A DNA stretch of 64,000 nucleotides from Vicinamibacterales bacterium (lineage in GTDB: Bacteria > Acidobacteriota > Vicinamibacteria > Vicinamibacterales > 2-12-FULL-66-21). The position numbers and the translations under genes are program-made. The notes below the pieces were generated by a model, which was given only the letters and a program-made list of their open reading frames with translations, had not been told where the DNA came from and did no database searches. The stretch lies in contig JBAROV010000088.1 in assembly GCA_049642465.1 (NCBI GenBank), positions 38,616 through 102,615 of the forward strand. Direction: 5' to 3'. How positions within the stretch are numbered: the first letter of the stretch is position 1; the number at the start of each line of letters is the position of its first letter. Positions 1,684 through 63,928 of the stretch are shown piece after piece.

Positions 1684-2445
1684 ATGACGATATATCTGCG
1701 GCGTCTTGCGGCGGTGATGGTGCTGTGCGGACTCACCGCCTGCTCCATTCCACCCCTTCCATCTCAGCCCTCGCACACCGCGCAGCTCGAAGTGCGCGGG
1801 ACGACGTTGATGATGGTGGGGGCACGCGGGTCGTTGAGTGCGTGGGAATTCGACGGCCAGCAATACCGTGAGGTAGAAGCCAGGTGGACAGCCGACGGGG
1901 ACGTCATCTCGATCTCGACGGCGGGAGCGATCGTGGCGCGTCGTCTCGGCGCCGCGACCGTGCGCGCGCAGTATCGCAACCTGACCGGCACCGGCACCGT
2001 GCACGTGGTCCCGAGCGTTGCCGGTACCTGGCGAGGAACGCTGACCGTCCTCGACTGCTGGCAGAGCGTGGTGACGTCACCGGATCCGTGTACAAACCGC
2101 CGCGGTTCGAACGCTCCGTTCTCCTTGACGGTGTCGCAGACAGATTCTGCGGAACTGGGCAATCTCACCGGCACGATAGCGGCGTTCACCCCCGCGGCGA
2201 CGGGGAGCTTCGTCGGGCTTCTCGACTCCGGCGGTGTGTTCTTCATCCAGGGCTACATCGAACGCGCACAAGACCGGCTGCAGGCGCCGGTGACGTTTCG
2301 CTGGATCCTGGAAGGCGAGCGGCTCGTTCCGCTGAAAGTCGATGATCGAATTGAGGATCAGATCGACGTGCAGCTCAGCATGCGTGTCGGCTCCGAGGTG
2401 GTGCCCTTCTCCGAGATCTGGCGGCTCTCTTCGCTGACGCGCTGA
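1684..2445 (+). CDS. Lipoprotein with bacterial Ig-like (Big_2-like) domain, hypothetical
   Basis: Signal peptide with lipobox LTAC. Beta-rich sequence. Ends RLSSLTR* immediately before the repeat elements. Confidence 0.55.
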   Translation: MTIYLRRLAAVMVLCGLTACSIPPLPSQPSHTAQLEVRGTTLMMVGARGSLSAWEFDGQQYREVEARWTADGDVISISTAGAIVARRLGAATVRAQYRNLTGTGTVHVVPSVAGTWRGTLTVLDCWQSVVTSPDPCTNRRGSNAPFSLTVSQTDSAELGNLTGTIAAFTPAATGSFVGLLDSGGVFFIQGYIERAQDRLQAPVTFRWILEGERLVPLKVDDRIEDQIDVQLSMRVGSEVVPFSEIWRLSSLTR

Positions 2446-2452
2446 CGCGCGT

Positions 2453-2593
2453 GGTTTACAGGAGATCAGGAGATCAAGAGAGAAGAACAGGAGGTCAGGA
2501 GATCAGGAGCACAATGTTTATCTGCCCCAAAAATAACTCCTTACCTCTTGATCTCCTGTCGATGCCTTCTGATCTCTTGATCTCCTGTGAACC
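2453..2593. mobile_element. MITE-like palindromic element copy 1 (~141 bp) with terminal inverted repeats GGTTTACAGGAGATCAGG / CCTGATCTCCTGTGAACC
   Basis: Terminal inverted repeats read directly. Internal GAGATC/GATCTC-rich arms around a central AT-richer core GCACAATGTTTATCTGCCCCAAAAAT. Confidence 0.6.
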
Positions 2594-2623
2594 ACACGCG
2601 TGGCTCTCTTCGCTGATGCGCGT

Positions 2624-2764
2624 GGTTTACAGGAGATCAGGAGATCAAGAGAGACGAACAGGAGGTCAGGAGATCAGGAGCACAATGTTTATCTGCCCCA
2701 AAAATTGCTCCTTACCTCCGTACCTCCTGTAAGCCTCTCCTGACCTCCTGATCTCCTGTAAACC
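2624..2764. mobile_element. MITE-like palindromic element copy 2 (~141 bp); left half nearly identical to copy 1, right half diverged
   Basis: Begins GGTTTACAGGAGATCAGGAG (2624) and ends its reverse complement CTCCTGATCTCCTGTAAACC (2764). Separated from copy 1 by 30 bp that duplicate the left flank (GCGTGGCTCTCTTCGCTGAYGCG). Confidence 0.6.
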
Positions 2765-2769
2765 CCCGC

Positions 2770-4239
2770 GTGCGATACTCGCAGCGGATGCGCGTCACCC
2801 TCAGGGACTCTCGACTCGGCCTCCTGAACTCCACCACCCGGATTCCCTTCCGCTACGGCACGGCGGTCCTCACCCGATGCCCGCAGGCGACCTTGCGGGT
2901 CACGATCGAATGCGACGGCCGCGTGCAAGCCGGTTACAGCGGCGATTGTCTCCCGCCAAGCTGGTTCGACAAGACCCAGGGCAAGGACTTTGCGATCCAG
3001 ATCGACGACATGCTCCGTGTCATCGCGCTCTCGCAGAAGATCTACGCCGACGCGTTTGCGAGAAACACGGACTTCTTTCCCGCCTGGCATTCAAGCGAGG
3101 AGCAGATTCAGCGGCGATGCCTCGAATGGAATCTGCCGCCGCTGCTCGCAAGCTTTGGCTCGAGTCTGCTGGAGCGCGCCATCCTCGATGCCGCGTGCCG
3201 GAGACACGCGACGAGCTTTGCTCGAGCCGTGCGCGACAATCTGTTCGGCATCGATGCGGGACTGGTGCATCGCGATCTGGCTGGTGAGGCGCCACGGGAT
3301 TGGCTGCCCGAACGGCCCGCGTCATCCCTGTACGTTCGGCAGACCGTCGGCCTGGGCGATCCGCTCGAGGACCAGGACATCCCAGACGCCGATCGGCTGC
3401 ACGACGGCTGGCCCCAGGCAATTGAACACTACGCCACCCGTCGTGGCGTCCGCTACTACAAAGTCAAGGTCTCGAACCAACTCGACCACGATCTCGAACG
3501 CCTCACTCGCGTCGCGAATGTACTGGAGCGGCACCTCGGACGTGACTACCGTCTGACGCTCGACGGCAACGAGCAGTACAAGCGAGCAGAGGATTTCGAA
3601 GCACTCATCGAGAGGATCCAGGCGCGTCCCAATCTCGCAACGCTTTGGGCCAACGTGCTCGTCATCGAACAACCGTTCGACCGCGCGATGGCGCTCGACT
3701 CCGGTCGTACCGGCGAACTGAAAGCGCTCTCGCGCTTGAAGCCAGTCATCATCGACGAATCCGACGGCACGCTCGACGCCTACGCGCGCGCAATCGCCGT
3801 CGGGTATCGCGGAGTCAGCAGCAAGAACTGCAAAGGCGCAATCCGGAGCCTCCTCAATGCCGGTCTGACCTGGCTTGGCAACGGCCGTGGCGGCCGTCAG
3901 GAGTTCTTGATGACTGGTGAGGATCTGTGCAGCGTGGGCATCGTTCCGACGCAGTCTGACTTGTGCCTTGCCGCGACGCTGGGGCTGCAACACGTCGAAC
4001 GGAACGGCCACCACTATCATCCCGGGCTCACCTATCTTCCAGAATCACAACGCCGCGCGGCGCTGGCTGCGCACGGCGATTTCTACGTCCGCGAGCACGA
4101 CATCATCGGACCCCATATCGTGGACGGCCAATTCCGCATCGCGTCACTGCAGTGTGACGGCTTCGGCTTCGCGGTGGAACCAGATCTGTCGGCGATGGAA
4201 CCTGCCGAATCGTGGCAGTTCGAATCGTTAGGATTGTGA
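2770..4239 (+). CDS. Enolase-superfamily (mandelate racemase / muconate lactonizing enzyme-like) protein with long N-terminal extension
   Basis: Putative barrel catalytic residues with correct spacing: KVKV, LDGNEQY, VIEQPFD, IIDESDG, SSKNCKG. GTG start at 2770 (alternative ATG at 2788). Stop overlaps the next start. Confidence 0.5.
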   Translation: MRYSQRMRVTLRDSRLGLLNSTTRIPFRYGTAVLTRCPQATLRVTIECDGRVQAGYSGDCLPPSWFDKTQGKDFAIQIDDMLRVIALSQKIYADAFARNTDFFPAWHSSEEQIQRRCLEWNLPPLLASFGSSLLERAILDAACRRHATSFARAVRDNLFGIDAGLVHRDLAGEAPRDWLPERPASSLYVRQTVGLGDPLEDQDIPDADRLHDGWPQAIEHYATRRGVRYYKVKVSNQLDHDLERLTRVANVLERHLGRDYRLTLDGNEQYKRAEDFEALIERIQARPNLATLWANVLVIEQPFDRAMALDSGRTGELKALSRLKPVIIDESDGTLDAYARAIAVGYRGVSSKNCKGAIRSLLNAGLTWLGNGRGGRQEFLMTGEDLCSVGIVPTQSDLCLAATLGLQHVERNGHHYHPGLTYLPESQRRAALAAHGDFYVREHDIIGPHIVDGQFRIASLQCDGFGFAVEPDLSAMEPAESWQFESLGL

Positions 4240-4240
4240 G

Positions 4241-5236
4241 ATGCCAACCATCAGAACCACCGTCGTCGGCAGCTATCCGGTTCCCACGTGGCTGCGGGTG
4301 TTCAGCACGCGTGAGAGCCTCCGGGACGCGATGCTGGCTGTCATCAAGACGCAGGAACTTGCTGGCATCGACGTCGTGGCCGACGGTGAGTTGTACCGGT
4401 GGGATATCAACCACGCGGAAACGAACGGGATGATCGATTACTTTCTGCGGCCGCTGCAGGGCGTCGCTCAGGATCTGACGCTCGAGCAACTGCATCGCTG
4501 GCGGAGCGCGCCGGGCCATCAGTTCCGATCGGCCCCGCCCGGAATCGTGATCGGGCCGATTGGGAGCGGCCGGTTGAATCTCGAGCGCGACTATCAGTTG
4601 TTCCGAGATTTGACCGACCGGCCGAAAAAGTTCACCGTCACCAGCCCGTACATGCTGGCCAAGACGGTAGGGGACGAGCATTACCGCGATCTCGATCGGC
4701 TCGTCCTCGCGTTGGCTGACGTCCTGCGAGAGCAGGTGCGGGCGATTGACGCCGCGATTGTCCAGATTGACGAGGCGAACGTTACCGGTCATCCGCACGA
4801 TGCGCGCCTGGCCGCACTGGGCATCAATCGCGTGCTCGAAGGCGTACGGCACGAAAAAGCCGTGCATCTGTGCTACGGGAATTACGGTGGACAGACGATC
4901 CAGAAGGGAACCTACGAAGCCCTCGTTGGGTTTCTCAACCTGCTGCAATGCGATCACCTGGTGCTGGAAGTCGCGCGCCGGCCGCCGGACGAACTCGAAT
5001 ATCTGAAGGACGTGCGGCGCGAGATTGGATTGGGGATTGGCGTCATCGACATCAAGGACAACGAGGTCGAGTCGGCCGAAACGGTCGCGCGCCGAATCGA
5101 GCGCGCGGCCAAGGTGCTCGGCATTGAGCGCGTGCGTTACGTGCATCCGGACTGCGGGTTCTGGATGCTGCCGCGGAGCGCAGCGGACGCGAAGATGCGG
5201 TCGCTGGTACGAGGACGGGATTTGTTCGAGGGTTAA
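4241..5236 (+). CDS. Cobalamin-independent methionine synthase (MetE) C-terminal-domain-like Zn-dependent methyltransferase
   Basis: MetE/UroD-fold motifs: N-terminal VVGSYP, Zn ligands H-x-C (VHLCYGNYGG) and late Cys (VHPDCGFW). Start 2 nt after the previous stop. Confidence 0.7.
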   Translation: MPTIRTTVVGSYPVPTWLRVFSTRESLRDAMLAVIKTQELAGIDVVADGELYRWDINHAETNGMIDYFLRPLQGVAQDLTLEQLHRWRSAPGHQFRSAPPGIVIGPIGSGRLNLERDYQLFRDLTDRPKKFTVTSPYMLAKTVGDEHYRDLDRLVLALADVLREQVRAIDAAIVQIDEANVTGHPHDARLAALGINRVLEGVRHEKAVHLCYGNYGGQTIQKGTYEALVGFLNLLQCDHLVLEVARRPPDELEYLKDVRREIGLGIGVIDIKDNEVESAETVARRIERAAKVLGIERVRYVHPDCGFWMLPRSAADAKMRSLVRGRDLFEG

Positions 5237-7819: not shown

Positions 7820-7890
7820 TCTGACGCATGTCAGTCGCTGGTGGCTAGTCGCTGGCCCGGCTGACGCTTGTCAGTCGCTGGTCGCTGGTC
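7820..7890. repeat. Two ~33-bp direct repeats CTGACGCWTGTCAGTCGCTGGTSGCTRGTCG in a convergent intergenic region, each with small hairpin CTGAC-GCAT-GTCAG
   Basis: Read directly. 7-bp periodic GTCAGTC/GCTGGTG units related to the GAYTGNN family elsewhere in the window. Confidence 0.4.
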
Positions 7891-8017
7891 GGGTCTGCCC
7901 GTGCCCGGACCTGTGCGCCGCGGCGCCGCTGACCCGATGTGGCTCCGCCGCGCCTCAGGCCTGGACGAGTGTCACTTTACAGATTCAGCCGATACATGGA
8001 AGGAAAGGCGACTCTGT

Positions 8018-56215: not shown

Positions 56216-56288
56216 TGGGCGGTACAGGACTCGAACCTGTGACACTCGGCGTGTAAAGCCGATGCTCTACCAACTGAGCTAACCGCCC
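56216..56288 (-). tRNA. tRNA-Val (anticodon TAC)
   Basis: Manual fold of the reverse complement: 7-bp acceptor GGGCGGT/ACCGCCC, D-arm GCTC/GAGC, anticodon stem TCGGC/GCCGA with loop TTTACAC, T-arm ACAGG-TTCGAGT-CCTGT. CCA not encoded. Confidence 0.9.
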
Positions 56289-58372: not shown

Positions 58373-58596
58373 GGTGGGCCTCCAAGTGCCGGCGGGGTTA
58401 GCTGACGGGCTCGAGGTTGGAGTTCCTCTATTCCGCGTCCCGTTGAAGGAGCCGCGAAAATTCGCCCCGTGGCGCGGTCATCGCGCCGGTGGTTCCCCCG
58501 CGGCGCCGATTGACGACGCCTTAGGCTAACTATTCAATATAGGCCTTTCCGCGCGGAATGCAACTCACCCGACCGATACGGAACGAGAGACAGTGT

Positions 58597-63851: not shown

Positions 63852-63928
<77 letters not shown>

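Follow-up and report, generated by a model that had tools for sequence, protein, structure and literature searches.

The stretch of DNA analyzed here (hereafter the window) comprised 64,000 nucleotides of a Vicinamibacterales bacterium (NCBI GenBank assembly GCA_049642465.1, contig JBAROV010000088.1), in which two imperfect palindromes of 141 bp were found between a lipoprotein gene and an operon coding for enolase-like and MetE-like proteins. With a probability of roughly 60%, both belong to a family of small extragenic palindromic repeats that is apparently undescribed, being local copies of a single member that grew in place. A first-pass annotation made from the sequence alone had considered them either as a transposase-less mobile element (MITE, for miniature inverted-repeat transposable element), transposed twice or duplicated with its flank, or as a structured cis-regulatory RNA.

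The two palindromes (2453-2593 and 2624-2764) were set in a tandem repeat with a period of 171 bp (2.0 copies, 89% matches by Tandem Repeats Finder), and no other large palindrome was returned by an inverted-repeat scan of the 64-kb window. Significance of pattern matches was judged against shuffles and fold z-scores against dinucleotide shuffles. The 18-mer GGTTTACAGGAGATCAGG was exact at 2453 and 2624 on the forward strand and at 2747-2764 on the reverse strand, and was found with 2 mismatches at 2576-2593 on the reverse strand (shuffle expectation of 0), while the 26-nt core GCACAATGTTTATCTGCCCCAAAAAT occurred exactly twice in the window, once per copy. Arms were complementary over 65 nt at 78% in copy 1 and over 59 nt at 85% in copy 2. 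Predicted folds reached -73.9 kcal/mol (z = -9.9) and -82.0 kcal/mol (z = -11.1), respectively, and predicted hairpin energies ranged from -74 to -99 kcal/mol across copies and strands. GC content was about 0.50 across the elements and about 0.64 in their surroundings. Most of the anatomy given by the first-pass annotation was recovered, namely two elements of about 141 bp with terminal inverted repeats (the 18-mer at all four ends, with 0 to 2 mismatches), a conserved core shared by both copies, one long imperfect hairpin per copy, and a left flank duplicated between the copies. The symmetry of the terminal repeats was present on alignment. The claim that each element ends with the reverse complement of its start held exactly for copy 2 and up to the two mismatches for copy 1, but the ends had been placed too far inside, as the palindrome reached about 8 nt further out (ACGCGCGTGG...CCACACGCGT).

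All arms were built from the same short unit. A position profile from 44 arms displayed a 23-nt core, ACAGGAGATCAGGAGATCAGGAG, made of three CAGGAGAT octamers and nearly invariant among these arms, most family members having been found with exact 20-mers. A weaker GnTTY preceded the core, and information content fell to about 0 on the inner side past position 23. The full unit encompassed about 28 to 40 nt, a subfamily-specific outer part (here CGTGGTTT) being followed by the 23-nt core, and each arm in the window harbored two units of about 28 nt. Unit ends read GnTTY-ACAGGAG, with neither a GTAG nor a CGTC tag. A single unit is non-palindromic, consisting of three direct CAGGAGAT octamers, and hairpins need two inverted units. 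A position weight matrix (PWM) calibrated on shuffles (shuffle maximum 12.9) retrieved exactly 8 units, starting at 2453, 2482, 2537, 2566, 2624, 2653, 2708 and 2737, with scores of 24 to 48, and none elsewhere in the window. Their order was R,R,Y,Y,R,R,Y,Y, where R stands for purine-rich and Y for pyrimidine-rich units. Tandem Repeats Finder also displayed a period-8 array of consensus CAGGAGAT inside every arm, with 6.8 copies in the purine arm of copy 1.

Related copies were retrieved in other genomes, as a family dispersed over a genome collection and metagenomes. A scan of 185,579 species, one genome per species, with the query GGTTYACAGGAGRTCARGAG returned 14 matches, against an estimate of roughly 9 expected by chance. 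Half of them (7 of 14) were intergenic repeats built from the same unit, most being hairpins. These members came from four Acidobacteriota metagenome-assembled genomes (MAGs), one Sandaracinaceae (Myxococcota) MAG and one Comamonadaceae-labelled MAG, all taxon labels being those of the depositors and the Comamonadaceae label, which came from short binned contigs, being the least secure. Metagenomes scanned with CTCCTGATCTCCTGTAAAYY provided 16 matches, 14 of which were intergenic repeats of the same design on soil contigs of 58-68% GC (12 hairpins and two pyrimidine-only arrays, on contigs L030 and L035). Some members came to light without being selected by motif: L032 and L033 each carried a second element, a Pirellulaceae-like contig had a hairpin at an unrelated locus (L047:8244-8340), and another hairpin lay in the orthologous intergenic region (L048:9656-9853). 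No family member was found in viral contigs, phage records or plasmids, and a single weak plasmid match was rejected as a plain (TYAGGAGG)n microsatellite.

The family had no counterpart in the catalogues searched. Rfam returned nothing at gathering score and only sub-threshold generic miRNA-hairpin matches at a permissive threshold, a full-text literature search by sequence returned unrelated eukaryotic primers only, and catalogues of REP (repetitive extragenic palindromic) sequences and TIRYT supplements held no matching unit and no GATCAGG or CAGGAG-type unit. A family of small palindromic repeats common to several soil phyla, here in DNA read as that of a soil planctomycete, is apparently undescribed. 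Two observations were made beside these searches. The AGGAG motif recurred every 8 nt on one arm and CUCCU on the other, so that Shine-Dalgarno (SD)/anti-SD mimicry or CsrA-type GGA sites are a possible cause of the likeness across phyla. The loop of an Acidobacteriota hairpin (L005:3990-4005) held AGATCGGAAGAGC, identical to the 13 nt with which the Illumina TruSeq adapter begins; this may be a coincidence due to the GAGATC-rich motif or a local chimera.

Arrangement of the units followed a constant polarity. Neighboring units identified by PWM were ordered R-then-Y 23 times and Y-then-R twice only, both exceptions being junctions between tandem hairpins. In inverted pairs the purine arm was always 5' and the GTTTAC ends pointed outward, and tandem arrays occurred as well. 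Loops varied from about 6 to 130 nt and were unrelated among members, even between two elements of one contig (L032, L033), some of them containing a GC-rich hairpin of their own. Terminal repeats were longer than the unit core and specific to subfamilies (GCTGCC(N)ACGGTTT-, GAGAAT- and (C)GTGGTTT-), the (C)GTGGTTT- terminus being common to the window, a Vicinamibacterales MAG and L039. These longer terminal repeats, seen in wider flanks, led to the rejection of complementary flanks as a sign of insertion into pre-existing hairpins. No direct repeats were found beyond the terminal repeats, neither in the window nor in about 20 relatives, which indicates that there is no target-site duplication (TSD). 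A TA target duplication of the Tc1/IS630 type (TA/CAGG...CCTG/TA) was also rejected: of 44 arms, 20 had T before ACAGG, 14 had C and 8 had A, even with T being forced in one arm of each pattern-ascertained element. Resemblances to attC, parS and CRP half-sites were rejected, as they did not fit in motif order or orientation.

Members were located 8 to 66 nt from gene ends, at least five of them between convergent genes, and their neighbors were housekeeping genes (e.g., aminotransferase, GcvT, RtcB). The placement of the family is REP-like and not promoter-like. The unit end TGTAAAT and the TTGATC/TTGACC motifs were rejected as promoter elements, given a spacing to start codons of 8 to about 40 nt and members lying between convergent genes. 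Solo or tandem pyrimidine-strand units were also observed on the sense strand 19 to 41 nt upstream of start codons (L007:137-164, L030:1441-1500, L035:1-75). The genes that follow them were unrelated: L007 has a likely hisS, named on visual inspection of the N-terminus, L030 a gene for a secreted protein, and L035 an open reading frame (ORF) of 191 aa; counting the focal locus, the orientation was the same in 4 of 4 independent cases.

Conservation of the arms was more consistent with a constraint on sequence than on pairing. Of the 13 hairpins whose direction of transcription was known, 6 folded better on the sense strand and 7 worse, and G-U pairs amounted to 39 on the sense strand vs 35 on the antisense. 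Deviations from the unit consensus were restricted to one arm in 66 cases and shared by both arms in 5 across 21 hairpins, a count biased by pattern ascertainment; in the four hairpins that were not found by pattern, a hand count from the alignment gave 10 uncompensated deviations and 0 compensated ones. Judging from these comparisons, it is the sequence of each unit that is conserved, with the hairpin resulting from the inverted arrangement, which speaks for a factor reading the unit and against an RNA of the riboswitch kind.

The orthologous site displayed a rapid turnover of units within a conserved gene order, as relatives kept a DUF6797 gene followed by the enolase-like, MetE-like and Gate genes. 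The closest relative, L018 (protein identity 96%, DNA 92.3%), harbored three tandem repeats of about 73 bp, i.e., 6 pyrimidine-strand units on a short-read scaffold, and no purine arm. Each repeat contained two pyrimidine-strand units and a spacer, GCAGGCCACAAT, which keeps a CACAAT remnant of the window core; the 26-nt loop/core itself seems specific to the window lineage. No units were found upstream of the enolase-like gene in L021-L024 (89%). At 83% identity, L025, L027 and L028 had three 27-bp units, and L026, coding for the same protein as L025, had two. L025:3990-4075 and L026:3775-3830, from two metagenome samples, differed over 800 nt by no mismatch and by a single 27-bp indel corresponding to one unit. 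Two units followed the orthologous lipoprotein gene in L029 (80%). A hairpin-type member with a structured loop of about 150 nt was present in L048 (75%), while L046 and L047 (77% and 75%) displayed no units at the orthologous site, nor did L049 (70%), which had a non-homologous hairpin with short subrepeats of its own. On this comparative evidence, the element is old at this site and has been remodelled quickly. The L049 hairpin (L049:9870-9950) consisted of (AAAGGAC)n and (GTCCTTT)n subrepeats, the purine arm again being 5', and hairpins of this build may be more general in these genomes.

Within the window, the second copy was best explained by a local duplication. The segment 2423-2442, from the left flank, was 95% identical to 2602-2621 in the spacer, and a third, partial flank copy, GCGGATGCGCGT, was found at 2784-2795. 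Duplicated codons of a gene end imply a local event and not a second transposition, and the suggestion of the first-pass annotation that the element was duplicated with its flank was confirmed, the spacer being the junction ACACGCGTG/GCTCTCTTC of a tandem duplication of 171-179 bp. The two repeat-unit lengths (179 vs 171 bp) result from this junction together with an 8-bp local duplication at 2432-2450 that is missing from the spacer copy. The left junction was recovered in contigs of two independent Sequence Read Archive (SRA) runs, both stopping 18-24 nt into the element, so that the structure is not confined to one assembly. A spurious 93-aa ORF (2451-2732), with no Pfam match, is a by-product of the 171-bp duplication and translates the copied C-terminal codons, in frame, as W L S S L M R.

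Divergence between the copies was unevenly distributed. Flank, left arm and core differed at 4 of 97 positions, against 21 of 65 for the right arm together with the 8 nt that follow it (p = 2e-6 for the contrast). In copy 1 the right arm resembled the L018 unit; in copy 2 the outer 20 nt of the right arm were perfectly complementary to the left arm. Two histories would fit: partial homogenisation of an older duplication, or duplication of a new left-arm/core segment ahead of two older pyrimidine arrays that had diverged before.

Comparison with known systems placed the family among the small extragenic palindromic repeats, apart from REPs and classical MITEs. As for REP, BIME and REPIN sequences, members are extragenic, near gene 3' ends and also between convergent genes; they occur as singles, inverted doublets with a long hairpin, and clusters; they lack TSD and their arrangement varies fast at orthologous sites; the RNA effects of those systems (3'-end protection, partial termination) are those which, by analogy, could be expected here. 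However, a REP unit is itself a stem-loop (an imperfect palindrome of 20-40 nt), while the unit here is a triple 8-nt direct repeat, separated by unrelated spacers of about 6 to 130 nt; in addition, REP/RAYT pairs are lineage-specific, while the core here is almost identical across phyla. The family is not a REP, since its unit is not a stem-loop and carries no GTAG/CGTC tag, nor a classical MITE, since TSD and conserved interior are lacking and no parent insertion sequence (IS) turned up in the DNA scanned. Correia elements of Neisseria and ERIC/IRU elements of enterobacteria are likewise intergenic imperfect palindromes of 100-155 bp, co-transcribed and forming long hairpins, and Correia elements affect RNase III processing and transcript stability. 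Their interior is conserved (with an IHF site in Correia) and their host range narrow, and Correia elements carry a TA duplication; here, arms alone are conserved and are built of octamer repeats. Promoter-proximal variable-number tandem repeats (VNTR) and contingency repeats share with the focal locus a polymorphism of unit number within a population right upstream of a gene (the 27-bp indel), but typical phase-variation tracts are much shorter than the unit here, which is also found at numerous loci and in phyla without relation to one another.

The closest candidates for a dispersal system were found among TIRtrons and Class 3 HUH-Y1 enzymes. Di Nocera 2013 (PMC3733652) describes terminal inverted repeats around TIRYT genes in Acidobacteria, many tyrosine transposase genes with flanking repeats in R. 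baltica, and TIRtron repeats occurring as singles, dimers and groups. Quentin 2018 (PMC6006769) reported a rare Class 3 of HUH-Y1, known mainly from Planctomycetes, Acidobacteria and Proteobacteria, whose flanking structures can reach up to about 600 copies per genome. Systems of this class are defined by a Y1 transposase gene that the same inverted repeats bracket. As described, both resemble the present family in having non-REP inverted-repeat units, moderately abundant and without TSD, in the same range of phyla; compared through published descriptions and motifs, their GGGGWSAS and CnGA foot and the Solibacter structure do not match the unit.

In the reading of a family member grown in place, the element is an old resident between the lipoprotein gene and the enolase-like/MetE-like operon, evolving there quickly through unit slippage and inversion or palindromisation of the array, and a tandem duplication of 171-179 bp in this genome took the last lipoprotein codons along. 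According to the fold predictions, read-through from the upstream gene would produce one or two very stable hairpins. On the model of REP/BIME, ERIC and Correia elements, each of them could serve as a 3'-end barrier, a processing site or a partial terminator, blocking 3' exonucleases, offering sites to double-strand RNases or attenuating read-through, and the lipoprotein gene might thereby be uncoupled from the operon. Dispersal would require a trans-acting factor reading the sequence, for which a TSD-less HUH-Y1 (RAYT/TIRYT-like) single-strand transposase would be the best candidate. It is a rather speculative proposal that the 23-nt core is the recognition site of a trans factor spread, probably horizontally, among soil Planctomycetota, Acidobacteriota and Myxococcota, and that Pirellulaceae units were co-opted as copy-number-variable expression modules upstream of start codons. 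Candidates for such a core-reading factor would be a HUH-Y1 enzyme, either new or of the Class 3 type, and a protein binding DNA or RNA.

Several observations weigh against this reading. Copies in the window are confined to this locus, so that multi-copy status of the source genome is deduced from relatives, where one extra member was found in roughly 190 kb of Pirellulaceae-like DNA. No transposase was present among neighboring genes, and none of any kind was linked to the units; the GTAG or CGTC tag of REP sequences is absent. Invariance of the core is overstated, partly through ascertainment, as members were mostly found by exact 20-mers, and the copy number in L018 could reflect a mis-assembly of its scaffold. 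Uneven divergence between copies makes a single recent duplication insufficient, implying a more complex history. Regarding the predicted termination, a scan found no intrinsic terminator in 2200-3000, the hairpin being devoid of a U-tract and the 3' side of its stem reading GTAAACC.

Among the rival explanations, a classical IS-derived MITE, mobilized in trans by a DDE transposase and inserted twice, or once with a second insertion beside the first, would account for the clear terminal inverted repeats, the small size, the absence of coding capacity, the departure in GC content and the related elements in other genomes and phyla. It appears very unlikely given that boundary direct repeats were lacking in the window and in about 20 relatives (the 22-bp flank copy being the tandem-repeat junction), that interiors were unrelated even within one contig, that about 400 kb of DNA, phages and plasmids yielded neither a parent IS nor a transposase, and that the orthologous site was remodelled unit by unit instead of showing presence or absence of a fixed element; together with the lack of a second locus in 64 kb, this leaves little of the double transposition proposed by the first-pass annotation. 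The structured cis-regulatory RNA that it also proposed, as a riboswitch-, attenuator- or thermometer-like leader of the operon, fared no better and is held to be just as improbable. Very stable predicted folds directly upstream of the operon, and unit arrays that persist before the same gene in relatives of 75-96% protein identity, speak in its favor, but no Rfam family matched, sense strands folded better in only 6 of 13 hairpins with G-U pairs near parity, deviations were overwhelmingly uncompensated (66 vs 5), several relatives had one arm type or nothing, the same unit lay between convergent housekeeping genes in other phyla, and both the ATG and a conserved -10-like motif (see below) were downstream of the element. 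A locus-specific protein-binding array or contingency locus, in which unit copy number (2, 3, 6, or a hairpin) tunes transcription of the operon, is somewhat less remote while still unlikely. The clean one-unit polymorphism of 27 bp within one population, the constraint of units as sequence, and the position of Pirellulaceae-type arrays, always on the sense strand and just before a start codon (at the L018/L025/L029 locus, in L030 and L035, as well as in the Comamonadaceae-labelled L007), all fit such an array. The distance from last unit to start codon nevertheless varied from 8 to about 40 nt, other phyla had units beside unrelated genes and in the gaps between convergent ones, the 89% relative manages without an array, and no regulator gene was associated.

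Seeding and spread of the family by a HUH-Y1 single-strand transposase (RAYT/TIRYT or 'Class 3') is a specific version of the dispersal step proposed above and is tentatively considered as possible, at well under even odds. The lack of TSD and the occurrence as singles, inverted dimers and clusters recall the description of TIRtron repeats (PMC3733652), and Class 3 enzymes are reported from mainly the same unusual range as the family, Planctomycetes, Acidobacteria and Proteobacteria (PMC6006769), though matching phylum ranges may be a coincidence. Both the Solibacter Class 3 structure (CCGAGCCGCGACTGTCAAGGAGCGGTTG) and the catalogued REPs, without exception, are short self-palindromes with no relation to the unit, which has neither GGGGWSAS nor CnGA motifs, and no HUH-Y1 signature was found by a six-frame motif scan of about 400 kb of DNA. 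An assembly artefact (chimeric or misjoined palindrome) could be suspected since short-read assemblies collapse at the element, yet it is barely conceivable: the left junction was identical in the two SRA runs, the right junction type recurred in L018, L019 and L020, the family was present in JGI, ENA, Logan and GTDB-listed assemblies, and orthologous copies showed evolutionary divergence.

The genes on both sides of the element and its parts are given in the table below. The upstream gene proved to be a lipoprotein gene, as annotated in the first pass, by its lipobox, and its product had no Pfam family. Its distribution was patchy: it was present in the window and at the same position in L029 (80%), and absent in L018 (96%), where about 190 bp of unrelated sequence took its place, L021 (89%) and L025 (83%). 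Downstream, nearly all listed homologues of the enolase-like protein were 483 aa long, the named ones being Pirellulaceae/Planctomycetota enolase C-terminal domain-like proteins, and for this reason the start was assigned to the in-frame ATG 2788 instead of GTG 2770; look-up of the exact 483-aa protein found no record. The gap between copy 2 and the start codon consequently amounts to 23 nt (GCGTGCGATACTCGCAGCGG) and not to the 5 bp given by the first-pass annotation. This stretch was present in L018 and, with 4 substitutions, in relatives without element, its block GTGCGATACTCGC being identical in L018 and in the element-free L021-L024. It includes, 8 nt ahead of the ATG, the extended -10-like motif TGCGATACT, and more distant orthologues displayed GATATATT or GATATAGT 15-17 nt before the start. 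Conservation and pattern thus suggest that the operon may have its own promoter or short leader in 2765-2787, although a consensus scan called no sigma-70 promoter near the element. With the ATG and this conserved stretch lying outside, the earlier view of a 5' untranslated region and promoter located entirely inside the element was abandoned.

Table. Features of the palindromic locus and its neighboring genes (window coordinates).
Feature	Position	Strand	Basis
Hairpin copy 1 with extended terminal repeat ACGCGCGTGG / CCACACGCGT	2445..2601	.	Inverted repeat, fold, flank comparison
Copy 1 purine-rich arm, units 2453-2480 and 2482-2509, each of about three CAGGAGAT octamers	2453..2509	+	PWM scores 48, 38
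Copy 1 loop/core GCACAATGTTTATCTGCCCCAAAAAT	2509..2534	+	Exact 26-mer, two copies only
Copy 1 pyrimidine-rich arm, units 2537-2564 and 2566-2593	2537..2593	+	PWM scores 32, 45; alignment with L018 units
Hairpin copy 2, units 2624-2651, 2653-2680, 2708-2735 and 2737-2764; core 2680-2705	2624..2764	.	PWM scores 48, 37, 24, 47
Spacer GGCTCTCTTCGCTGATGCGCGT, copy of last lipoprotein codons, tandem-duplication junction	2602..2623	+	Direct repeat, 95% identical; alignment
8-bp tandem duplication CGCTGACG x 2.4, overlapping lipoprotein stop codon	2432..2450	+	Tandem Repeats Finder; 8-column alignment gap
253-aa lipoprotein gene, last codons being the duplicated flank	1684..2445	+	ORF; signal peptide with lipobox LTAC/S
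23 nt outside element, CCCGCGTGCGATACTCGCAGCGG, with -10-like TGCGATACT; candidate promoter or short leader	2765..2787	+	Conservation, pattern
Enolase-superfamily-like gene, 483 aa, start ATG 2788	2788..4239	+	Homologue lengths; Pfam MR_MLE_C below cut-off
MetE-like gene, next after enolase-like gene	4241-5236		Pfam Meth_synt_2, E = 2e-24

Other features were observed apart from the element. A c-di-AMP riboswitch (ydaO/yuaA leader) was located at 58375-58537 on the reverse strand of the window (60.7 bits vs a gathering score of 38), and tRNA genes at 56216-56288 and 63855-63928, both on the reverse strand. A short-repeat stretch (GTCAGTCGCTGG / GTCGCTGG motifs) was found at about 7838-7892, just past a sulfatase gene; the independent Logan contig L015 ends at these repeats, which suggests another assembly-breaking repeat. 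In L018, an extra DUF7133/cytochrome gene lay between the MetE-like and Gate genes. The Pantoea agglomerans plasmid NZ_CP134760.1 (L050, about 10.7 kb) harbored a (TTAGGAGG/TCAGGAGG)n microsatellite of about 18 copies in an AT-rich intergenic region beside a tyrosine recombinase gene, SD-like and with the 8-nt periodicity of the present unit, without inverted partner.

Taken alone, the locus is a modest result, a repeat duplicated in place between two genes, and the family behind it is the unusual part. Elements of this kind break short-read assemblies and mislead gene callers, as displayed here by the 93-aa ORF and the wrong GTG start, and their polymorphism in unit number is usable as a strain marker. 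The design is uncommon, with a non-palindromic, octamer-built unit conserved as sequence rather than for pairing, and a core nearly the same across phyla, a combination suggestive of a specific protein that reads the unit and of horizontal spread. REP, BIME, ERIC and Correia elements shape transcript stability, termination and genome rearrangement, and have been well studied only in Proteobacteria; the present family would extend small palindromic repeats to poorly studied soil phyla.

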